Positions 1,093 through 61,322 of a DNA stretch of 64,000 nt are shown here, in pieces. Both the position numbers and the translations under genes were made by a program. The stretch is taken from NCBI GenBank assembly GCA_951406725.2, contig OX597819.1:49848001-49912000 (forward strand). Reading direction: 5' to 3'. Source of the DNA: Octopus vulgaris (Eukaryota). Within the stretch, counting starts at the first letter, position 1. Each line of letters begins with the position of its first letter. The notes under the pieces were generated by a model. It was not told where the DNA came from. It did no database searches and saw only the letters and a program-made list of their open reading frames with translations.

Positions 1093-1233
1093 AATATATA
1101 TATATATATATCAACAATAAAGGAACGGCCATAATAGGCCATTCACCCACTAGAAATAACAGCCAAAGCTTCAACCGCAAATAAAAGTTAATTCAGTAAA
1201 CCAGGAGAAAATTTAAAAAACATTTACCCTGTA

Positions 1234-1340
1234 ATTTCTTATACGATATACCGTTTCATCTGCTGATTAATGGTAAACTAACCTGATTAAATTAAATCAA
1301 GCCAATCTTCCACAGGCCCTCAGATTCATCAGTAAGAAAT
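1234..1340 (-). ncRNA. Type I hammerhead ribozyme (492-bp unit, copy 1)
   Basis: Minus strand reads ATTTCTTA-CTGATGA-ATCTG...CAGAT-GAAA-CGGTATATCG-TA-TAAGAAAT: 8-bp stem I, 5-bp stem II base, short stem III, GUA site. Confidence 0.9.
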
Positions 1341-1725
1341 AGCCCAAGACGGAACAGATATTTTCACGAGGCATTTCCGACGTTGCCAAGTTTATATCTG
1401 ACCTAAAATTTTCAAATCGTCGCACTCGCGCCAAATTTATCGGCAGCAAATAAATATAAGCCGTCGATTCCATTACGGAATTAACCAGAAAATTCATAAT
1501 TAATCAATATAGGGTGGCAAAAAAATTTTGTAGAATTCTTTTGCCACCAGCGGCCTAGTAGGAAAAAATTAAAATAGTCATAGACCATTTTTAAGTTCAA
1601 CATCAACAATAAAGGAACGGCCATAATAGGCCATTCACCCACTAGAAATAACAGCCAAAGCTTCAACCGCAAATAAAAGTTAATTCAGTAAACCAGGAGA
1701 AAATTTTAAAAACATTTACCCTGTA

Positions 1726-1832
1726 ATTTCTTATACGATATACCGTTTCATCTGCTGATTAATGGTAAACTAACCTGATTAAATTAAATCAAGCCAATCT
1801 TCCACAGGCCCTCAGATTCATCAGTAAGAAAT
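1726..1832 (-). ncRNA. Type I hammerhead ribozyme (492-bp unit, copy 2)
   Basis: Same motif as 1234-1340; tcatcag at 1818-1824. Confidence 0.9.
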
Positions 1833-2217
1833 AGCCCAAGACGGAACAGATATTTTCACGAGGCATTTCCGACGTTGCCAAGTTTATATCTGACCTAAAA
1901 TTTTCAAATCGTCGCACTCGCGCCAAATTTATCGGCAGCAAATAAATATAAGCCGTCGATTCCATTACGGAATTAACCAGAAAATTCATAATTAATCAAT
2001 ATAGGGTGGCAAAAAAAATTTTGTAGAATTCTTTTGCCACCAGCGGCCTAGTAGGAAAAAATTAAAATAGTCATAGACCATTTTTAAGTTCAACATCAAC
2101 AATAAAGGAACGGCCATAATAGGCCATTCACCCACTAGAAATAACAGCCAAAGCTTCAACCGCAAATAAAAGTTAATTCAGTAAACCAGGAGAAAATTTA
2201 AAAACATTTACCCTGTA

Positions 2218-2324
2218 ATTTCTTATACGATATACCGTTTCATCTGCTGATTAATGGTAAACTAACCTGATTAAATTAAATCAAGCCAATCTTCCACAGG
2301 CCCTCAGATTCATCAGTAAGAAAT
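2218..2324 (-). ncRNA. Type I hammerhead ribozyme (492-bp unit, copy 3)
   Basis: Same motif; tcatcag at 2310-2316. Confidence 0.9.
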
Positions 2325-2709
2325 AGCCCAAGACCGAACAGATATTTTCACGAGGCATTTCCGACGTTGCCAAGTTTATATCTGACCTAAAATTTTCAAA
2401 TCGTCGCACTCGCGCCAAATTTATCGGCAGCAAATAAATATAAGCCGTCGATTCCATTACGGAATTAACCAGAAAATTCATAATTAATCAATACAGGGTG
2501 GCAAAAAAATTTTGTAGAATTTTTTTGCCACCAGCGGCCTAGTAGGAAAAAATTAAAATAGTCATAGACCATTTTTAAGTTCAACATCAACAATAAAGGA
2601 ACGGCCATAATAGGCCATTCACCCACTAGAAATAACAGCCAAAGCTTCAACCGCAAATAAAAGTTAATTCAGTAAACCAGGAGAAAATTTTAAAAACATT
2701 TACCCTGTA

Positions 2710-2816
2710 ATTTCTTATACGATATACCGTTTCATCTGCTGATTAATGGTAAACTAACCTGATTAAATTAAATCAAGCCAATCTTCCACAGGCCCTCAGA
2801 TTCATCAGTAAGAAAT
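2710..2816 (-). ncRNA. Type I hammerhead ribozyme (492-bp unit, copy 4)
   Basis: Same motif; tcatcag at 2802-2808. Confidence 0.9.
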
Positions 2817-3392
2817 AGCCCAAGACGGAACAGATATTTTCACGAGGCATTTCCGACGTTGCCAAGTTTATATCTGACCTAAAATTTTCAAATCGTCGCA
2901 CTCGCGCCAAATTTATCGGCAGCAAATAAATATAAGCCGTCGATTCCATTACGGAATTAACCAGAAAATTCATAATTAATCAATATAGGGTGGCAAAAAA
3001 AATTTTGTAGAATTTTTTTGCCACCAGCGGCCTAGTAGGAAAAAATTAAAATAGTCATAGACCATTTTTAAGTTCAACATCAACAATAAAGGAACGGCCA
3101 TAATATTATGGCCGTTCCTTTATTGTTGATGTTGAACTTAAAAATGGTCTATGACTATTTTAATTTTTTCCTACTAGGCCGCTGGTGGCAAAAAAATTCT
3201 ACAAAATTTTTTTTGCCACCCTATATTGATTAATTATGAATTTTCTGGTTAATTCCGTAATGGAATCGACGGCTTATATTTATTTGCTGCCGATAAATTT
3301 GGCGCGAGTGCGACGATTTGAAAATTTTAGGTCAGATATAAACTTGGCAACGTCGGAAATGCCTCGTGAAAATATCTGTTCCGTCTTGGGCT

Positions 3393-3499
3393 ATTTCTTA
3401 CTGATGAATCTGAGGGCCTGTGGAAGATTGGCTTGATTTAATTTAATCAGGTTAGTTTACCATTAATCAGCAGATGAAACGGTATATCGTATAAGAAAT
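3393..3499 (+). ncRNA. Type I hammerhead ribozyme (492-bp unit, inverted copy 1)
   Basis: atttctta 3393-3400, CTGATGA 3401-3407, atctg/cagat stem II, GAAAC 3476-3480, GTA 3489-3491, taagaaat 3492-3499. Confidence 0.9.
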
Positions 3500-3885
3500 T
3501 ACAGGGTAAATGTTTTTTAAATTTTCTCCTGGTTTACTGAATTAACTTTTATTTGCGGTTGAAGCTTTGGCTGTTATTTCTAGTGGGTGAATGGCCTATT
3601 ATGGCCGTTCCTTTATTGTTGATGTTGAACTTAAAAATGGTCTATGACTATTTTAATTTTTTCCTACTAGGCCGCTGGTGGCAAAAGAATTCTACAAAAT
3701 TTTTTTTGCCACCCTATATTGATTAATTATGAATTTTCTGGTTAATTCCGTAATGGAATCGACGGCTTATATTTATTTGCTGCCGATAAATTTGGCGCGA
3801 GTGCGACGATTTGAAAATTTTAGGTTAGATATAAACTTGGCAACGTCGGAAATGCCTCGTGAAAATATCTGTTCCGTCTTGGGCT

Positions 3886-3992
3886 ATTTCTTACTGATGA
3901 ATCTGAGGGCCTGTGGAAGATTGGCTTGATTTAATTTAATCAGGTTAGTTTACCATTAATCAGCAGATGAAACGGTATATCGTATAAGAAAT
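3886..3992 (+). ncRNA. Type I hammerhead ribozyme (492-bp unit, inverted copy 2)
   Basis: CTGATGA at 3894-3900; same stems as 3393-3499. Confidence 0.9.
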
Positions 3993-4218
3993 TACAGGGT
4001 AAATGTTTTTAAAATTTTCTCCTGGTTTACTGAATTAACTTTTATTTGCGGTTGAAGCTTTGGCTGTTATTTCTAGTGGGTGAATGGCCTATTATGGCCG
4101 TTCCTTTATTGTTGATGTTGAACTTAAAAATGGTCTATGACTATTTTAATTTTTTCCTACTAGGCCGCTGGTGGCAAAAAAATTCTACAAAATTTTTTTT
4201 GCAACCCTATATTGATTA

Positions 4219-4249
<31 letters not shown>

Positions 4250-4303
4250 TATTCACACACACATACATACACACACTCACGCACGCACACACACACACAC
4301 ACA

Positions 4304-4520: not shown

Positions 4521-4915
4521 ACCCATGTATCTGCGCAGGTATGGCTGTGTAGTTTGCTTTCCAAATATGTGACTCTAGGATCAGTCCCACAACTTACCAC
4601 TTTGGGGATGGTTTTCTAGCCGAGCAAAACTTGTTTGCATGGATCTGACAGATAGGAGCTGAAGGAACATCGCCCTATATGTGTGTGCATGCATGTGCCT
4701 ATATATATATATATATATATATATAAGTAGTTGAATGAATTATCCTAGTATGGATAAATCGGTTAACCGATACCCGGGTAGCAAATTCACGTCAGAAAAC
4801 ATGTTTGAAGCTACATGCCAAGGGCAGAATTCACGTGCTTTCGTGTGGAAATTTGTGTGTATTTTTTAATATAAATAAATGAAAGAATGGAGTCGAACGA
4901 CGATTTAACAAAATT

Positions 4916-5010
4916 CCTTTATTCTCGACATATGTTTCGAAGACTGCATATTCTTAATTCCGAAGGAATAAAGGGTGCATTACGCCGCCTTCTCATCAGG
5001 AAAGACAAGG
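4916..5010 (-). ncRNA. Type I hammerhead ribozyme, ATAT palindromic stem III
   Basis: Minus strand: tttc-CTGATGA-gaaggc...gtcttc-GAAAC-ATAT-GTC-gaga. Confidence 0.8.
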
Positions 5011-5220
5011 AACTTACGTCAGCATCATGACGAACAAAAACTTTTAGATGACTGCCCACACGGAGTCCATAGTGATGTGATCACTATGGACTCCGTGTGG
5101 GCAGTCATCTAAAAGTTTTTGTTCGTCATGTTGCTGACGTAAGTTCCTTGTCTTTCCTGATGAGAAGGCGGCTGGGCAGTCATCTAAAAGTTTTTGTTCG
5201 TCATGATGCTGACGTAAGTT

Positions 5221-5313
5221 CCTTGTCTTTCCTGATGAGAAGGCGGCGTAATGCACCCTTTATTCCTTCGGAATAAGAATATGCAGTCTTCGAAACATAT
5301 GTCAAGAATAAAG
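5221..5313 (+). ncRNA. Type I hammerhead ribozyme, ATAT palindromic stem III
   Basis: CTGATGA 5232-5238, stem II gaaggc/gtcttc, GAAAC 5292-5296, ATAT, GTC 5301-5303. First stem I pair is mutated relative to the other arm. Confidence 0.75.
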
Positions 5314-5349
5314 AAATTTTGTTAAATCGTCGTTCGACTCCATTCCTTC

Positions 5350-5421
<72 letters not shown>

Positions 5422-6008: not shown

Positions 6009-6585
6009 CTAATGAATTTAAGAACTTTGTATTGTTGGAAAGCATATATGGTTTGCTTGGAATCTTGCTTCAAGTTCCTGGAGCTCACATCTATAACTTT
6101 ATAAGTATATTTACACTCTCTAAGATGTTTGGAAAACCTATATGAAATTTAGCTGAAGATTACTTAACATTATATTTGCTGTAATATTTGCAGCTTTAAT
6201 AAATTGTTATAGTATGAAACAATTGTACTAAACTACCGATCCATTCTTGTTGCTTATTATTTTTTGGTTATAATCACCCCACATAATTTTATGGGTAATA
6301 CCATAAAAAAATTCTGGTGCATCTAAGTTAAGTACCATATTCATTTGAATCTAAATTGTTTTGCTATATATATATATTTGTATATGTATATATACCATCA
6401 AGTAAGATAGGGGTTGTGGATCCAACCCACTAAGGGATAATACTTATCCAATATACTGTTGGTATAATACCCAAATTGTTAATACACAAGTGTTTTTAAT
6501 TGCAATGCAATATACTTACTTATTGTAGGAAATAGGTGAAGGTAGAGAAATATTTTACCATTAATTTATATTACAAAAAAAAAAA

Positions 6586-20741: not shown

Positions 20742-20861
20742 ATGCTTACAGCACTTGGGCTTTCCAAGCGGTCACCCATCTAAGTACTAACTAGGCTCAA
20801 TGTTGCTTAACTTCGGTGATCAGACTAGAACCGGTGCTTTCAACATGATATGGCCGTAAGC
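20742..20861 (-). pseudogene. 5S rRNA copy (probably retroposed) fused to a LINE 3' tail
   Basis: Minus strand gcttacggccatatcatgttgaaagcaccggttct..gatcaccgaagttaagcaac..gttagtacttagatgggtgaccgc..gctgtaagc is a full-length, 120-nt eukaryotic 5S. Confidence 0.9.
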
Positions 20862-26405: not shown

Positions 26406-27396
26406 CGCGTGTGTACATACATTCGTGCAAGTTTGCATACGTACGTACACACATACATCACATACATGCACACATACATACATTTATACATGCATAAATG
26501 CATGCATGCATTCGTACATACATGCATAAATGCATCATACATATATACATATATACGTACATAATACATACATACGTACGTGCGTACATGCATACATACA
26601 TACATATATGCATGCATGCATCCACACACACATACACACGCTCAGACACACAAATACATTACGACAGTTCTTAATACTCCTATTGATGTAAACTGGCGAC
26701 CCGTCCTTCCCTTATTGCCACTGTGCAATGCTGCAAAAAAAGTAAATTCCCTGCTATACGGCACATCAGTGCCAGGAGGGGTGCCGGATACCTGAATTTT
26801 CCGGATATCTAAACATCACTTTTTAAATTAACATTGCACCATACAAATGTAATTAAAGCTCTATAAATACATTAATATTATAATTATTATTCTGAAATTA
26901 GTAGAAATGAGACAAGTAGGAAGAAATAAAAGTATAATTTAAGAACACGTCTTATTAACCTAATAAAATACACCTACTGTTTCTTGCAGTATAATAAAAC
27001 ACTCTACAGTTATTTGAAAAGTAACGACCCATTTCAAATACAGTAGAAACTTTATTTCTTTTAATGACAATTAATTAACACAAATTAGTGCGAATTCTTT
27101 TGACTCTAATTAACATATTTTCCATTATATTTTTCCTGGGTTCCGGTTGCTTGAGAGTTTCCGTTATTTGAGTACCGGATAATCGGGAGTTTATCATAAA
27201 TCAATATACGTGTGTCTCACCGGAATACAAGTAGGAGTGGATTCCAAGTTGGGGTACAGAACTAAGAATGGCAATTGACTCACACGGCCAGCAGCAGTGT
27301 TGGTACAGCTGCGGATATCAACATCTACCGAATAGTATTTACCCAGAAAGGAAACTGGCTTTCTGAGTAAAGGTGGCGAGCTGACAGAAACGCTAG

Positions 27397-28415
27397 CCCG
27401 CCGGGAGATGCTATTTGCTGATGATGCCGCTCTGGTATCACACACAGAAGAAGCCCTACAAAGGCTCATCAACTGTTTTGAGCAAGCATGTGGCAACTTT
27501 GGCTTAGTTATTAGCCTCAAGAAGACCAACATCATGGGTCAGGCTACATCGACCATCCAAAACATACATATTGGAGACCACAGACTACAGGAAGTAGAGA
27601 AATTTACCTATCTTGGCTCTACCGTCACCTACTACCTATCCCTTGATACTGAGCTCAATATACGCATTGGCAAGGCAGCTGCTGTGATGGCCCAACTCTC
27701 CAAACGGGCATGGGACAACAATAAGCTGACCACAAAAATGAAGATTTACCAGGCATGTGTACTTAGCACTCTACTGTATGGAAGTGAGACTTGGACGCCA
27801 TACGACGCCATACGTCGCCTAAATATCTTTCACCTGCGTTGCCTCCGGAAAATCTTTCGCATCAAATGGCAGAATCATGTCCCCAACAAAGATGTCATCA
27901 AGCAAGCAGGAATACCAAGCATGTTTACACTCCTCACACAAAGACGTATGAGATGGATTCGACATGTTAGCCGTATGGAAGATGGCACAATCCCCAAGGA
28001 CATACTCAACGGAGAGCTTGCTAGAGGCACTAGGTCTGTGGGAAGACCGTTCTTACGATACAAGGATGTTTGCCAAAGGGACATGAATGCCTGCAACATC
28101 AATATTACCAACTGGGAAGCAGTTGCCAGCAACCGTGGAGATTGGCGACGTACCGTAAAAGAGGGAACACAAACGAGTGACATAGAGGGAGAGGAGAAAT
28201 AGAAAGACAAGAAAAGACGTCAACAAGAAAGTATGACATTACAACCAGCCAGGCAAAGTCTTCGCTACATTTGCGGCACCTGCCAGAGGGAGTGTTTGTC
28301 CAGGATAGGACTACACAGCCACAGCAGATGTATTAGGACATGAAATGAAAAAGCCGGACTAGATTATTTTATGCGCAACTCCATTGTCTCCCGAGACAAA
28401 AAGGATGCCAACAAC
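27397..28415 (+). mobile_element. 5'-truncated RTE-clade LINE
   Basis: ORF 27408-28202 has LFADDAAL, FTYLGS, RIGKA, IYQACVLSTLLYGSETW, FHLRCLRKI, WIRHVSRM. Downstream C2H2-like CGTCQRECLSRIGLHSH and a (caa)n tail. Confidence 0.93.
27408..28202 (+). CDS. RTE reverse transcriptase C-terminal fragment, 264 aa (transposon-derived, probably non-functional)
   Basis: Starts at the catalytic FADD motif and lacks the endonuclease and most RT subdomains. Confidence 0.8.
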   Translation: MLFADDAALVSHTEEALQRLINCFEQACGNFGLVISLKKTNIMGQATSTIQNIHIGDHRLQEVEKFTYLGSTVTYYLSLDTELNIRIGKAAAVMAQLSKRAWDNNKLTTKMKIYQACVLSTLLYGSETWTPYDAIRRLNIFHLRCLRKIFRIKWQNHVPNKDVIKQAGIPSMFTLLTQRRMRWIRHVSRMEDGTIPKDILNGELARGTRSVGRPFLRYKDVCQRDMNACNINITNWEAVASNRGDWRRTVKEGTQTSDIEGEEK

Positions 28416-31205: not shown

Positions 31206-31314
31206 TACACTGTCGTTACCGTCTTGCTTTTTTTACCATTTTTTACCCCTCTGCGAAAAGATCTCAGAATTTTAATTGATTTGCTTTTCACAGGAAGGAA
31301 GTTTCTTCGAAGTA

Positions 31315-31378
31315 TACGTCTCGCTTTTATCCTTCGAAACGTAGAGTAGATGAAACCTTAGCGACTGAAGAAGGGGAT
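31315..31378 (+). ncRNA. Hammerhead ribozyme with non-circularly permuted strand order (copy 1)
   Basis: TAC-GTC(site)-TCGCT-ttt-ATCCTTC-GAAA-CGTA-16 nt-AGCGA-CTGAAGA-AGGGGAT. Stem III TACGT/ACGTA, stem I TCGCT/AGCGA, stem II ATCCTT/GGGGAT. Confidence 0.8.
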
Positions 31379-32198
31379 TTTTCGTTGTGCTTATTGTCCT
31401 GTATCTCTTTTTTTCTTTTTTGCTTGTCCTGTTCCTTGGTTTGTGTCTATGTTTTTCGTCTCTCTATGTGTTCGACGTCTTTTTGGTGTCCTGTACACAT
31501 ATATGCGTGTATATGTACATGTAGAGGTAGGTACGTACATATATGTTTATATATATGCATATGTTCTATTTTATTAACATATGATACGACTAAACGCACG
31601 CACCCTATTAAGTAAGATTGTTCTGTTTATCAAGTTAGCCTTGATATTAACTCTCACGCGACTCTGCATCTTTCTTTCTTTCTCTCCCATTCCCTTTTTC
31701 GTCCTTTTTCCCTCACTTAACTTGTCTCTTCCTCTCTCTCTCATTCTTCATTCTCTCTCTCCCCCTCACCATTCTTCATGGTCTCCTCGCACCATTCCCC
31801 TTCTTCTCTCTCTTCCTCTTGCTCCTCCTCCCCCATTCCCGTCGTCCATCTGCGACGATACTTCCGTCGTAACTGCTATCCTGTCTTTTCTCGCCCGCCT
31901 TCTAAGGCCACTGGTCGACATTCTTTCTCTCTCGTCGTCCACTATAATCCAGCGTTTGCATTACTTTTTTCGTCTGGCGTAAACAGCCCTTCTTATCTTG
32001 TTCTCCTTGTCCTGTCTCTCACTGTTATATATTTATTTTTCAACTGTTTATATATAATTTTTTTTTTTTTTTTTTACTGTTTATATGTTTGTACTGTCGT
32101 TACCGTCTTGCTTTTTTTACCATTTTTTACCCCTCTGCGAAAAGATCTCAGAATTTTAATTGATTTGCTTTTCACAGGAAGGAAGTTTCTTCGAAGTA

Positions 32199-32262
32199 TA
32201 CGTCTCGCTTTTATCCTTCGAAACGTAGAGTAGATGAAACCTTAGCGACTGAAGAAGGGGAT
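32199..32262 (+). ncRNA. Permuted hammerhead ribozyme (copy 2)
   Basis: Identical to 31315-31378; CTGAAGA at 32249-32255. Confidence 0.8.
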
Positions 32263-33079
32263 TTTTCGTTGTGCTTATTGTCCTGTATCTCTTTTTTCTT
32301 TTTTGCTTGTCCTGTTCCTTGGTTTGTGTCTATGTTTTTCGTCTCTCTATGTGTTCGACGTCTTTTTGGTGTCCTGTACACATATATGCGTGTATATGTA
32401 CATGTAGAGGTAGGTACGTACATATATGTTTATATATATGCATATGTTCTATTTTATTAACATATGATACGACTAAACGCACGCACCCTATTAAGTAAGA
32501 TTGTTCTGTTTATCAAGTTAGCCTTGATATTAACTCTCACGCGACTCTGCATCTTTCTTTCTTTCTCTCCCATTCCCTTTTTCGTCCTTTTTCCCTCACT
32601 TAACTTGTCTCTTCCTCTCTCTCTCATTCTTCATTCTCTCTCTCCCCCTCACCATTCTTCATGGTCTCCTCGCACCATTCCCCTTCTTCTCTCTCTTCCT
32701 CTTGCTCCTCCTCCCCCATTCCCGTCGTCCATCTGCGACGATACTTCCGTCGTAACTGCTATCCTGTCTTTTCTCGCCCGCCTTCTAAGGCCACTGGTCG
32801 ACATTCTTTCTCTCTCGTCGTCCACTATAATCCAGCGTTTGCATTACTTTTTTCGTCTGGCGTAAACAGCCCTTCTTATCTTGTTCTCCTTGTCCTGTCT
32901 CTCACTGTTATATATTTATTTTTCAACTGTTTATATATAATTTTTTTTTTTTTTTTACTGTTTATATGTTTGTACTGTCGTTACCGTCTTGCTTTTTTTA
33001 CCATTTTTTACCCCTCTGCGAAAAGATCTCAGAATTTTAATTGATTTGCTTTTCACAGGAAGGAAGTTTCTTCGAAGTA

Positions 33080-33143
33080 TACGTCTCGCTTTTATCCTTC
33101 GAAACGTAGAGTAGATGAAACCTTAGCGACTGAAGAAGGGGAT
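33080..33143 (+). ncRNA. Permuted hammerhead ribozyme (copy 3)
   Basis: Identical to 31315-31378; CTGAAGA at 33130-33136. Confidence 0.8.
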
Positions 33144-33339
33144 TTTTCGTTGTGCTTATTGTCCTGTATCTCTTTTTTCTTTTTTGCTTGTCCTGTTCCT
33201 TGGTTTGTGTCTATGTTTTTCGTCTCTCTATGTGTTCGACGTCTTTTTGGTGTCCTGTACACATATATGCGTGTATATGTACATGTAGAGGTAGGTACGT
33301 ACATATATGTTTATATATATGCATATGTTCTATTTTATT

Positions 33340-33401
<62 letters not shown>

Positions 33402-37144: not shown

Positions 37145-38273
37145 TAGTTTTATTTTTATTTTTATAGCGTGCTTTCACTTCACTACCGAGCGCAGCTCTG
37201 TGTGCCTTGGATATGTGCTGTGATTTGTTGTGATGCTCTGATGGTTATTGTATGGAAAGTGTTCTGCGTAGGATGTGTGCAGTGCCTAGTAGTGCAATTT
37301 TCTGTATGTTATATGTGTTTGTAGAGTACTGCTGTGAAGTATGCGTGTAAGATAGAAGTGTATTCCTCACGTGTCCATTTACGTCTTTTGGGTTTTATTT
37401 GCGGGACATGAGGTACAACGTCCGGCCCATTATTTTGACGGTCGTCATTTTCGTAGGGTACCGGTCCGTTTATTTCTGTTGTCACATTATTTCGCACGTG
37501 TAGTTTTTCGTACATTTTTTGTTGTAGGTTTAATGTACGTACCGCTCGATTGTTATTCTTGGGTTGAATAGTATCGGTGGCATTTAATTTCTTCGTAGTT
37601 CCTTTGTACATGGTGTTTGGGGTCGGAGATGATCGTGGTGTTTCACGCATGTTTACATGTGTTGCGTTAGAGGTGGAGATGATATCGAGTCAAAATACAT
37701 CATTTCGTTTCGAAAATAGTAATAAATTTCAATTTGTATTACTTACTCGGATACAGTCCAATTCTTTGTTAGTAAAACTTTGGCTCCATAGGATGTCCTT
37801 GTTTTCGATGTTTGTGGATAGGTTTCGGAGCTCTGAATTTTCCTTCTTACATCTTAAAAGTCCCCCGGTGTTCTCCTCTTAAAAGTCCCCTGGTGTTCTC
37901 CTCTTAAAAGTCCCCCGGTGTTCTCCCTTAAAAGTCCTCCGGTGTTCTCCCTTAAAAGTCCCCCGGTGTTCTCCCTTAAAAGTCCCCCGGTGTTCTCCTT
38001 AAAAGTCCCCCGGTGTTCTCCCTTAAAAGTCCCCCGGTGTTCTCCCTTAAAAGTCCCCCGGTGTTCTCCCTTAAAAGTTCCCCGGTGTTCTCCCTTAAAA
38101 GTCCCCCGGTGTTCTCCTTAAAAGTCCCCCGGTGTTCTCCCTTAAAAGTCCCCCGGTGTTCTCCCATAAAAGTCTCCCGGTGTTCTCCCTTAAAAGTCCC
38201 CCGGTGTTCTCCCTTAAAAGTCCCCCGGTGTTCTCCCTTAAAAGTCCCCCGGTGTTCTCCCTTAAAAGTCCCC

Positions 38274-38274
<1 letters not shown>
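37141..38274 (-). mobile_element. Internally deleted R4/Dong-type LINE with a 5' minisatellite
   Basis: N-terminal RRKWTREEYTSILHAYF is joined near 37322 to C-terminal NIQKIALLGTAHILRRTLSIQ*. (TAA)n lies at both ends. Confidence 0.75.
37853..38274. repeat. 24-bp minisatellite (cccttaaaagtcccccggtgttct), about 17-18 copies
   Basis: Head-to-tail near-identical units with no unique spacers. Confidence 0.95.
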
Positions 38275-43063: not shown

Positions 43064-43619
<556 letters not shown>

Positions 43620-43620
<1 letters not shown>

Positions 43621-44177
43621 TACACTGTATTTATATGAATAATATATAGTCTATTGACTAGTTTTTTTCTTCATGCTAGACCGCTGGTAGCAAAAAATTT
43701 CTAAATGATTTTTTGCTACCCTGAAATTTATCAATAATGATTTTTTGGATAATTTTGAAAGAAAATCGGCATTTTTCTATTTGCTGCCGATAAAACCTGC
43801 GCTTGCGCGGTGGATTTGAAAGATTATAACATGTAAGCACGAGGCATGTTCTGTATTGCCTCGTATTTATATGTTAATCTTGGCTTTCCTGCTGATGATA
43901 GCTGCGCGTAGCAAATTATTTGCTGAAGATAGCTTGAAACCATGGTACAAGAAATGTTTTTATTTTTCATTCCCTTTCGAAATTACCCCTAATCGTGGTT
44001 TGGATTTTAACTATTCCTTCTAGCGGGTTAGATGTCGTATTATGGTCATCTCTTATGTGTTTAAATGTACACTGTATTTATATGAATAATATATTGTCCA
44101 TTGACTAGTTTTTTTCTTCACGCTAGACCACTGGTAGCCAAAAATTTCTAAATAAGTTTTTGCTACCCTGGAAATGT
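43620..44177 (+). repeat. 447-bp partial tandem (about 1.25 copies), diverged homolog of the 492-bp family
   Basis: gtacactgtatttatatgaataat at 43620 and 44067. Shares ctag.ccgctggt.gcaaaaa..ttttttgc.accct and tatttgctgccgataaa with 3170-3300. Confidence 0.85.
43885..43954 (+). ncRNA. Type I hammerhead ribozyme, CATG palindromic stem III
   Basis: tttcctg-CTGATGA(43892-43898)-t-agct..agct-t-GAAAC-CATG-GTA-caagaaa. Confidence 0.85.
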
Positions 44178-44189
44178 ATTATATCTATA

Positions 44190-54146: not shown

Positions 54147-54232
54147 ATTGACCTGAAGATTGGGAATATTTAAATTGAATTGATTTTACTGTTATCAGTT
54201 TTTAAATATAGCCACGAAACACGTGCAGTCAT
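54147..54232 (+). ncRNA. Decayed type I hammerhead, ACGT palindromic stem III
   Basis: tgac-CTGAAGA(54153-54159)-ttgg..atatttaaa..tttaaatat..ccac-GAAAC-ACGT-GCA-gtca. The cleavage triplet is GCA instead of GUH. Confidence 0.6.
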
Positions 54233-54459
54233 TGTATCAATTATATTCTTTTTTTTATTATTTTATAAATTACTTTTTCATTGGTATATGTTTTTATCTT
54301 ATATTTGATTGTTTTCTATATGGTATAATTTAATTATTTCATTGTTGAATTGATTAAAGTTGGTTTTTGTTTAATTTATATACATATATTATATTTTGTG
54401 AAATTTGATTTAGTATTTCTAAATTGAATTTTCCCCTGTAAGTTTGGAATAATATTCCC

Positions 54460-55467: not shown

Positions 55468-55618
55468 CATATTAGAAGGATGACCACTATGTGGACAATC
55501 CTACTGCTAGAAGTAGATCCGCTATGGTCTTACCACTGAGAAAGGTTCTCTAGAAAATTTAGCAAACACTAGAACGTAATCGAGCACGACAAATGAAAAG
55601 TAACAAAAATATAGATTA

Positions 55619-55694
55619 ATCATAAACAATGTTTCACTATCAACAGATTACGTAATTTTAATTATGCAATTTGTCCGTAGATCTTCAGTATGAT
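55619..55694 (-). ncRNA. Type I hammerhead ribozyme (GUU site)
   Basis: Minus strand atcata-CTGAAGA-tcta..tagt-GAAAC-ATT-GTT-tatgat. Confidence 0.7.
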
Positions 55695-56141
55695 CGTCAT
55701 ACAAATATAATTTTCAGAACTACACACCAGACAATTACGTTCTGGTGTTTGCTAAAGTTTCTAAAGAACATTTCTTAGTGGTAAGACCATAGCGGATCTA
55801 CTTCTAGCTCTAGGGTTGTCCACATAGTGGTCATCCCTCTAAATACAATTTACTGAACCTTCAGTTTTTAATATACTAGACCACTGGTGTTAAATTGATG
55901 TTATTAAACAAATATTCAATTTTTCATCCTCATTTTAATTTCAATTTTAAATTAATACGTTCTCAAACCGGCAAAAGCTACTGCAGTGAATTATTTCATG
56001 CAGTTTTATTTAGTGTAATTTAGTGCGCCAAAACGAGGACTTGTGAAAATTAACCACAAGTGTAATAGGTAGAACTACATACATGCCCGAGCTCGTACAG
56101 ACGTTTGGTGTGTAGTTCTTCAAATTATATTTGTATGACGA

Positions 56142-56215
56142 TCATACTGAAGATCTACGGACAAATTGCGTGAGTAAAATAACGTAATCTGTTGATAGTG
56201 AAACAATGTTTATGA
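56142..56215 (+). ncRNA. Type I hammerhead ribozyme (GUU site)
   Basis: tcata-CTGAAGA(56147-56153)-tcta..attgcgt/acgtaat..tagt-GAAAC-AAT-GTT-tatga. Confidence 0.7.
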
Positions 56216-56300
56216 ATTATCTTCAGTTTTTAATATGCTAGACCACTGGTGTTAAATTGATGTTATCAAATTAATATTCAATTTTCCACCCTCATTTTAA

Positions 56301-56338
<38 letters not shown>

Positions 56339-57065: not shown

Positions 57066-57218
57066 ATATACACACGCTGACATAGAACCAACGTTGAACC
57101 CCTTATTCGCAAAATTACCGAATCTGGAACTTAACTATGGTGTGTCTATAGCACTTATTCAGCATTACCTTTGGGTCTCAATGACACCATTATCTCTTAT
57201 TACTTCAACTTCTCGCCA

Positions 57219-58258
57219 TGTGCTCATTGTCCTGTACTCCCTTTTTTTCTTGTCCTGTTCCTTGGTTTGTGTCTTGTTTTTCGTCTCTCTATGTGTTCGA
57301 CGTCTTTTTCGTGTCCTGTACACATATATGCGTGTATATGTACATGTAGAGGTAGGTACGTACATATATGTTTATATATATGCATATGTTCTTTTATTAA
57401 CATATTATACGACTAAACGCACGCACCCTCTTAAGTAAGATTGTTCTGTTTATCAAGTTAGCCTTGATATTAACTCTCACGCGACTCTGCATCTTTCTTT
57501 CTTTCTATTCCATTCCCTTTTTCGTCTTTTTTCCCTCACTTAACTTGTCTCTTCCTCTCTCTCTCATTCTTCATTCTCTCTCTCCCCCTCACCATTCTTC
57601 ATGGTCTCCTCGCACCATTCCCCTTCTTCTCTCCCTTCCTCTTGCTCCTCCTCCCCCATTCCCGTCGTCCATCTGCGACGATACTTCCGTCGTAACTGCT
57701 ATCCTGTCTTTTCTCGCCCGCCTTCTAAGGCTACTGGTCGACATTCCTGCTCTCTCGTCGTCCACTATAATCCAGCGTTTGCAATACTTTTTTCGTCTGG
57801 CGTAAACAGCCCTTCTTATCTTGTTCTCCTTGTCCTGTCTCTTACTGTTATATATTTATTTTTCCACTGTTTATATATATTTTTTACTGTTTATATGTTT
57901 GTACTGTCGTTACCGTCTTGCGTTTTTTACCTTTTTTTACCCCTCTGCGAAAAGATCTCAGAATTTTAATTGATTTGCTTTTCGCAGGAAGGAAGTTTCT
58001 TCGAAGATACGTCTCGCTTTTATCCTTCGAAACGTAGAGTAGATGAAATCTTAGCGACTGAAGAAGGGGTTTTTTCGTTGTGCTCATTGTCCTGTACTCC
58101 CTTTTTTTCTTGTCCTGTTCCTTGGTTTGTGTCTTATTTTTCGTCTCTCTATGTGTTCGACGTCTTTTTGGTGTCCTGTACACATATATGCGTGTATATG
58201 TACATGTAGAGGTAGGTACGTACATATATGTTTATATATATGCATATGTTCTTTTATT

Positions 58259-60724: not shown

Positions 60725-61322
60725 TTTATTTTTCCTTCTGGCCCCACTTACCTGGTTCCAGTCACTCGCAGCTTGTTCACTACTTTCTTCCATCTTTTTG
60801 CGAACATATCCTGTGACAGGTATCTCTTCTCCAGTCTGATCTTACAATCGAGGTGGTAACTAAAGAGGTTAACGAACACCTGGCCGGAGACAAAGGTACC
60901 TGTCACTATGCCTTTCACACGCGTCTTCCATACTGTTCCGTTCAGTATGCCTACTAAGCAGAAAAAAAAAGAAGCCTTTCTTTCGCTGTTAAGGCACAAT
61001 CTTGATAATAGACTCTGCCGATAGCTGTACTCTTCCCATCGTTGACAGCGGTTGCTCGACAAAAGCTATCAGTCCCGATAATTCCGGACACTCCACGAAG
61101 GTGTGCAAGGCAGGTTCTCTCTCCCGCCCGCACCACAGGCATATCGGCGAGACGGCACTTCCGTGCCATGACAGTTTGTCCCGAACAGGCAAAGTCGAAC
61201 GTTGCACTGCTAAACCAGGGATTTCTGGTAGTTATCCAGATACCCCGGCGCGAAAGTTCTCCTGAACAGGTTGATCAACTGATTTCCATTGAAGCCCAGG
61301 GTCTCCACCAGGACATCGTCTG
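60725..61322 (-). mobile_element. Tx1/L1-like LINE 3' fragment (zinc-knuckle region)
   Basis: TLPVRDKL..SPICLWCG..EPALHTFVECP (CCHC zf-RVT-like), then VWKTRVK..FAKRWKKV; frameshifted. Confidence 0.75.

Follow-up and report, generated by a model that had tools for sequence, protein, structure and literature searches.

A head-to-head array of hammerhead ribozyme repeats in Octopus vulgaris with features of retrozymes and of Penelope-like insertions

Two kinds of element already described come closest to the locus reported here. Animal retrozymes of the non-LTR class (LTR, long terminal repeat) are tandem, non-coding and highly repeated units with a GC content below 50% that each carry one type I hammerhead ribozyme (HHR); their palindromic helix III favours dimers, and they are proposed to depend on Penelope-like elements (PLEs), according to the accessible sections of two studies (PMC7229834, Cervera and de la Pena 2020; bioRxiv 10.64898/2026.07.22.740005, Li, Clavereau and Pollet). 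PLE insertions are described, in the extracts available, as partial tandems with an adjoining inverted and 5′-truncated copy, a tail at one end and a preference for (TA)n (PMC8557442), head-to-head palindromic junctions being the most frequent form (PMC3846280). The tail of the anole PLE is the stretch between two internal reverse transcriptase (RT) start sites (PMC11167929), and dimer-dependent type I HHRs with a palindromic helix III have been described for PLEs (PMC4209133). An array that resembles retrozymes in all the respects named above, and PLEs in its anatomy, lies at 1110..4219 of a 64,000-nucleotide stretch of the Octopus vulgaris genome (assembly GCA_951406725.2, contig OX597819.1, positions 49,848,001 to 49,912,000 of the forward strand; hereafter the window, numbered from its first nucleotide). 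With moderate confidence, we interpret this array as a young insertion of a non-autonomous, non-coding PLE derivative. On this reading it is a non-LTR retrozyme of the animal type, and its unit amounts to a pseudo-LTR (pLTR) standing on its own.

The array consists of two head-to-head arms that together hold 6.3 copies of a non-coding 492/493-bp unit. The 492-bp repeat named in an original prediction, made from the letters of the sequence, is confirmed by Tandem Repeats Finder, which reports 1110-3105 with a period of 492 (4.1 copies, 99%) and 3104-4220 with a period of 493 (2.3 copies, 99%). The left, inverted arm (1110..3105, − strand) comprises 4.06 tandem units with four HHRs, and the right, direct arm (3104..4219, + strand) 2.27 tandem units with two; the arms are mutually inverted with a spacer of 0 nt, and the 5′ end of each is central. 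Unit positions were numbered from the predicted cleavage site. Cleavage-to-cleavage monomers comprise one of 493 nt on the + strand (3492..3984) and three of 492 nt each on the − strand (2226-2717, 1734-2225 and 1242-1733). These four differ at 2-6 positions, in keeping with the few differences noted in the original prediction, and only 4 substitutions in 3.1 kb are private to a single unit. The unit has a GC of 0.35, below the 50% of the retrozyme description, and itself lacks any (TA)3 run. It is non-coding, the longest stop-free stretch across the six frames of a dimer being 68 aa; a rolling-circle open reading frame (ORF) was rejected, as 492 is divisible by 3, yet stops occur in all six frames. 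A bacterial promoter scan returned 3 sites against 1.7 expected, a result irrelevant to animal DNA. At 492 bp the unit is longer than the 150-450 bp given in the accessible sections of PMC7229834 and falls within the 51-972 bp given in those of bioRxiv 10.64898/2026.07.22.740005. The description of a young retrozyme-like locus holds up on tandem type I HHRs, lack of coding capacity, a GC of 35%, a highly repeated family and unit identity above 98%.

The partial tandem, the inverted 5′-truncated arm, the palindromic junction, the (TA)n ends and the offset 3′ ends of the array are the marks of a PLE insertion, and its 3′ ends are non-random. The original prediction had named Penelope pseudo-LTRs only as a parallel and had not recognised the inverted arm, the junction, the target and the offset ends as signatures of such an insertion. 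Unit position 106 is the starting point of each arm, and the two share 2 nt (TA) at a head-to-head palindromic junction (3095..3114) that falls within the loop of a hairpin at unit 99-118. This site A hairpin, seen at 3590..3609 (+), stands just upstream of the 3′ end of the inverted arm and is a candidate RT-initiation signal. Both outward 3′ ends lie in (TA)n, the left one at unit position 132 (site A; target 1094..1111) and the right one at unit position 234 (site B; a (TA)17 target at 4219..4252). The 102 nt that separate sites A and B in the unit form the tail, which contains a CTAG motif and an A/T-tract hairpin upstream of site B (3667..3713, +). The left target doubles as the 3′ end of another inverted-repeat element, which is older and lies at about 312-1092; the left arm of the array sits within the (TA)n end of that element.

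Both ends recur elsewhere. A diverged relative at 43619..44180 (+), a partial tandem of about 1.3 units with a 447-bp period, also runs into (TA)n with a site B 3′ end; the end is shared with the array (homology z 13.2, 0/500 shuffles), and the CTAG motif and its hairpin are conserved. Over its length the relative matches the array unit in 398 of 645 aligned columns, and its own type I HHR (43892-43947) has a covarying stem I. The site A end recurs with another flank in a probable RNA run, X2, as a loose end at 3619 and as records ending at 3623. Three window elements combine an inverted arm with the site A motif, and in all three the left arm meets (TA)n 21-25 nt past the start of that motif and the rightmost arm ends 59-79 nt past the CTAG motif: the distances are 21 and 59 nt in the array, and 25 and 70-79 nt past the corresponding site A-like and CTAG-like motifs in the elements at 312-1092 and 55472-56310.

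In the parts of the literature available on PLEs and their pLTR hammerheads (PMC8557442, PMC3846280, PMC4209133, PMC11167929), the same features appear together: partial tandem, inverted 5′-truncated head-to-head copy, a palindrome at the junction, a tail on one side, a target that is (TA)n or AT-rich, and HHRs with a palindromic helix III and a long helix II. An autonomous PLE has an RT and GIY-YIG ORF between its pLTRs, whereas the array has neither and its unit is without an ORF. Conversely, an inverted arm with a tail is not described for retrozymes in the accessible sections of PMC7229834 and bioRxiv 10.64898/2026.07.22.740005. Non-autonomous Chlamys PLE derivatives such as MRC1 are comparable in that they are non-coding, multicopy head-to-tail insertions mobilised by PLEs; they differ in belonging to a green-algal clade reported, in the extract available, without canonical HHRs, and in that similarity to an autonomous partner is known there (PMC8557442). 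Judged by its letters, the locus fits the description of animal non-LTR retrozymes (tandem HHRs, lack of coding, GC, multiple copies) with PLE anatomy added and the ORF missing, a combination that agrees with the thesis of bioRxiv 10.64898/2026.07.22.740005.

A descriptor scan recovered six identical type I HHRs at all six complete HHR positions, four and two of them consecutive, in agreement with the predicted canonical core, 8-bp stem I and four-to-two split between the strands. Each comprises CTGATGA, a 5-bp base of stem II, GAAA, stem III ACGGTATATCGT, the cleavage triplet GTA and a perfect 8-bp stem I. In the copy at 3393..3499 (+), stem I (3393-3400/3492-3499) encloses the core (3401-3407), a rod-like stem II (3408-3475), GAAA (3476-3479) and the palindromic stem III (3479-3490), and cleavage is predicted after A3491. 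The identical copies lie at 3886..3992 (+; predicted cleavage after 3984) and, on the − strand, at 2710..2816, 2218..2324, 1726..1832 and 1234..1340 (after 2718, 2226, 1734 and 1242, respectively). A stricter descriptor matched 10 times in the window; the 30 block-shuffled controls yielded 0 matches per window. Stem II had been put at about 60 nt; the insert between the core boxes is indeed long but measures 68 nt, 58 of them inside the basal 5 bp, and folds as a long rod (−24.8 kcal/mol). This 68-nt rod sets the array apart from animal non-LTR retrozymes, while the full 8-bp stem I and the longer, 12-nt stem III distinguish its HHR from the minimal HHRs of PLEs. Stem I is a simple helix of 8 bp, stem II forms a long rod, and no loop 1-loop 2 contact is recognised; most of the usual contact bases are also missing from a mussel retrozyme family, according to the accessible sections of PMC7229834.

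No Rfam hammerhead family reaches its gathering score anywhere in the window, and the Hammerhead_1 search suggested beforehand came back empty, with no such match among the 80 window matches at E<=10. Sub-threshold Hammerhead_3 matches do occur at that level (19.6-26 bits against a cut-off of 48.5), and the 68-nt stem II insert is probably what causes Rfam to miss these ribozymes. The miRNA-type matches at E<=10 were discarded as palindromes and microsatellites. Rejected too was a type III hammerhead reading with a cut after C3385: no stem I forms on folding, T3384 is A in 46-56% of the DNA depth, the motif is broken in 1 of the 6 copies, and it is absent from the 43.6-kb relative.

The array belongs to a large, highly repeated tandem family. 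At least half of the unit's words are contained in 20 of the 24 listed runs (11 studies, four organism labels), none of which is on record as RNA. Four runs were compared with the unit as contigs, of which X1, a possible source of the window DNA, and X4, which is independent, are DNA, and X2 and X3 are probable RNA. Family contigs numbered 4606 in X1 and 775 in X4, with many variants, although contig depth gives no copy number, and unit-length go-back joints were present in 13 and 2 contigs, respectively. Pattern scans gave no match in metagenome contigs or viral contigs. A single 523-nt contig of X3 spans the unit once with a self-overlap of about 30 nt, and X2 has the same go-back joint. A unit-length self-overlapping contig arises equally from a circle or from a tandem multimer in de Bruijn assembly. 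Both X2 and X3 carry 3405A, at the free core position N7, together with a deletion at 3651, a variant that makes up 1.4-7.7% of DNA depth and is present in none of the window's copies, and both lack the DNA-dominant alleles at 3420 (80-86%), 3467 and 3665. This suggests that a minority subfamily about 99% identical to the locus is transcribed, and not the locus itself. A circular RNA of about 492 nt from this locus is possible.

The folds point to ribozymes that would cut as dimers. The HHR region is more stable than all of 200 shuffles (z −4.7), but a monomer is predicted to adopt the hammerhead fold with a probability of only about 0.006. The 12-nt near-palindromic stem III contributes −0.2 kcal/mol as a hairpin and −13.6 as a duplex, and two HHRs co-folded without constraint form a double hammerhead at −72.6 kcal/mol, compared with 2 x −31.5 for the non-hammerhead monomer folds (reference energies taken from single-monomer folds). 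The bases at the dyad centre, 3484/3485, change together from AT to GC in family DNA contigs (8-10% of depth in X1, 40-44% in X4). They would be loop bases in a monomer and yet are kept complementary, which argues for pairing in the dimer; this covariation points to a dimer, and may go back to one inherited event. The 30 core and stem I positions of the HHR are hit by 0 of the 11 common DNA variants located within it (P=0.02).

A cycle that could generate such a locus would start from a tandem source locus giving rise to multimeric RNA, transcription being likely at the level of the family. The 12-nt palindromic stem III would join neighbouring HHRs into the double hammerhead that the folding models predict, and cuts after GUA would release 492-nt monomers that a host ligase may close; we assume cutting and circles because both are reported in other animals. 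The RT/GIY-YIG protein of an autonomous PLE, a presumed enzyme, would act in trans to nick (TA)n DNA, and reverse transcription would be primed internally on the RNA from either of two fixed sites separated by 102 nt, one for each DNA strand. The two cDNAs would then join head-to-head at the 2-nt overlap, which would account for the direct arm, the inverted arm and the tail. A single circle is less likely to have been the template than a multimer, uncut or cut in part, or several RNAs. In the anole PLE, uncut RNA is the main insertion substrate; in vitro, its HHR depended on protein and was not required for insertion (PMC11167929).

Position 3687 (unit 196) is informative about the template, as it is polymorphic across the family (33-42% A in DNA). 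Read outward, the left arm has A,A,G,G at this position and the right arm A,G,A, which shows that neither arm was simply copied from the other. Mixed alleles of this kind are better accounted for by several templates, or by a heterogeneous multimer, than by one circle copied in rolling-circle fashion. The classic retrozyme cycle (PMC7229834), in which efficient self-cleavage yields abundant 492-nt circles and the RT of a PLE or long interspersed nuclear element produces tandem arms by rolling-circle reverse transcription, would predict identical units from a single circle, whereas family-wide alleles alternate within each arm; we consider it unlikely. It can claim the intact HHRs, identical in all six units, and circles demonstrated in coral, mussel and axolotl, as stated in the accessible sections of that paper. 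The unit-length self-overlapping contigs, from two probable RNA runs of two studies and free of the DNA-majority alleles at three positions, would also suit it, but they fit a circle and a multimer equally. The circularised ribozyme strand folds at z −3.9 (40 shuffles) and the antisense strand at a similar −3.7, so that the circular fold lends no strand-specific support. Cleavage in vitro was seen for 1 of 9 Xenopus retrozyme dimers, according to the part of bioRxiv 10.64898/2026.07.22.740005 available. It is a little less likely still that the array began as a short head-to-head pLTR remnant of an autonomous PLE and was later expanded as a satellite by unequal crossover, with the HHR as a passenger that has no role at the RNA level. 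PLE remnants with opposite-strand HHR pairs are known (PMC4209133) and common in the window, local amplification is discussed in the same part of bioRxiv 10.64898/2026.07.22.740005, and the A,A,G,G series of the left arm fits stepwise duplication. Such a history sits poorly with two arms that are both multimeric and hold so few private substitutions, with go-back joints of unit length being common genome-wide, with the 43.6-kb relative being a complete non-coding partial tandem in its own right, and with HHR variants that are compatible with structure. That the array is an assembly artefact, either a fold-back read or a mis-expanded repeat, appears very improbable: the arms mirror each other perfectly over the first 414 nt from the centre and the contig tables hold no strand-change joint, yet farther out 9 mirrored positions in about 700 nt disagree between the arms, which are also of different lengths, end at different sites in different flanks, and have counterparts in the inverted arms of three other window elements.

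Several observations weigh against reading the array as a PLE-borne retrozyme insertion. Gene conversion after insertion could also explain the mixed alleles. Homology of the 3′ module is weak in pairwise comparison with the 312-1092 element (z 2.3, 12/500) and the 55.5-56.3-kb element (z 3.6, 1/500), so the agreement of three out of three elements rests in part on motifs picked by eye. No target site duplication can be read within the (TA)n at either end, and the tail of 102 nt exceeds the 30-40 nt reported for PLEs. No GIY-YIG domain was found in the 110 scanned frames (from 303 stop-free frames of >=70 aa, with the low-complexity rest dropped), the domain matches there being RVT_1 (27336), zf-RVT (60992) and a PT repeat, and no autonomous PLE sharing sequence with the array was found among these frames. 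When variants are considered across the whole unit, the absence of core variants (0/31) is not significant (P=0.13), and the RNA status of X2 and X3 is an automated guess.

Run X2 also holds a trace of what looks like RNA editing; its scope is one run, at a depth under 5, in contigs of probable RNA only. Two overlapping contigs (depth 2.4 and 2.9) cover 3415-3597, and in a comparison by hand their loose ends match 3491-3520 if 11 of the 13 A are read as G, with the other 17 bases unchanged. The two spared A have G and C as 5′ neighbours, and depletion of a 5′ G is a preference of the adenosine deaminase ADAR (PMC5625713, in the extract available). Seven of the 9 substitutions listed for X2 are A>G and none is T>C, which identifies the ribozyme strand as the edited one, and the A>G changes at 3459 and 3551 are present at <=0.06% in DNA. 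The molecule carries 3538G and thus derives from another, sister copy. The apparent edits reach the A at the cleavage site as well as stem I, and the RNA that carries them runs uncut across this site; taken together, this contig pair looks ADAR hyper-edited across the cleavage site. The 600 nt around the array centre fold at −532 kcal/mol, and on this model read-through of the head-to-head insertion would make long double-stranded RNA (dsRNA), a potential substrate for hyper-editing as a last step of the proposed cycle. Available parts of the literature report hyper-editing of Penelope repeats in lizard (PMC5625713) and, for an engineered HHR, activity slowed about 30-fold by inosine at the cleavage base (PMC3923133). 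No report of editing of a natural retrozyme was found in the literature searched, which misses most subscription papers. It is conceivable, though we think it doubtful, that a retrozyme clade is spread by PLEs from uncut multimeric RNA with two fixed starts about 100 nt apart, that each head-to-head insertion acts as a dsRNA trap, and that ADAR hyper-editing across the cleavage adenosine and stem I silences the HHR, setting the balance between circles and transposition-competent multimers.

The same 64 kb contain five other HHR families (4999/5232, 6153, 43892, 54153 and 55688/56147) and three more inverted-repeat elements, which makes elements of this kind ordinary in the window. In all these families stem II is long and stem III is palindromic or nearly so, with different letters; since stem II length varies, the eight HHRs were tabulated by anchor. 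An element of an unrelated family at 4851-5379 has HHRs at 4999 (−) and 5232 (+) in head-to-head arms that flank a 3-nt spacer (5077-5079), a 75-bp internal duplication and a right end in (TA)33; it shows no homology to the array's 3′ module (z −1.4), and in the HHR at 5232 the base of stem I contains a mismatch. Two related elements, at 312-1092 and 55472-56310, have inverted arms in a nested arrangement and run into (TA)n at their ends. The former yielded no HHR; the latter bears two, at 55688 (−) and 56147 (+), whose stem III measures 7 nt and whose site is GUU. Two further type I HHRs, at 6153-6235 and 54153-54235, are solitary and have stem II rods of 56 nt, and the stretches downstream of both lack homology to the 3′ module (z about 0). 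The one at 54153 has lost U16.1, changed to C, and is probably dead. A 200-bp near-perfect palindrome without a spacer, largely microsatellite, lies at 43255-43454, just upstream of the 43.6-kb relative.

The remainder of the window is microsatellite-rich animal sequence. It includes a single full-length 5S rRNA match at 20743-20861 (−; 97.6 bits), an RVT_1 reverse-transcriptase fragment at 27336-28202 (+) in a 288-aa frame, and a zf-RVT fragment at 60992-61231 (−). We take the last two to resemble remnants of non-LTR retrotransposons and not of PLEs. A tandem duplication of about 883 bp occupies 31280-33340, with identical frames at 31578 and 32461, and a third similar copy is found at 57135-58230, near 57400. 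A 24-bp minisatellite spans 37853-38274 (17.6 copies, 96% matches).

Elements of this kind are already known, and no paper on octopus retrozyme hammerheads was found by title or start of abstract in the literature searched. The present locus is a clean example of a pure retrozyme array that bears all the insertion signatures of PLEs; its most notable points are the tail of 102 nt, the mixture of alleles and the trace of editing. Its insertion anatomy supports the view that animal retrozymes are parasites of PLEs, which had previously been argued from co-occurrence and from trees, and the mixed alleles of its nearly identical units provide a simple way to test whether one circle or a multimer was the template. 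If the ADAR-trap reading were true, it would amount to anatomical evidence against the rolling-circle spread of retrozymes and to a natural ribozyme controlled by editing. The editing trace, if it holds, would tie heavy A-to-I editing to the control of a natural ribozyme.

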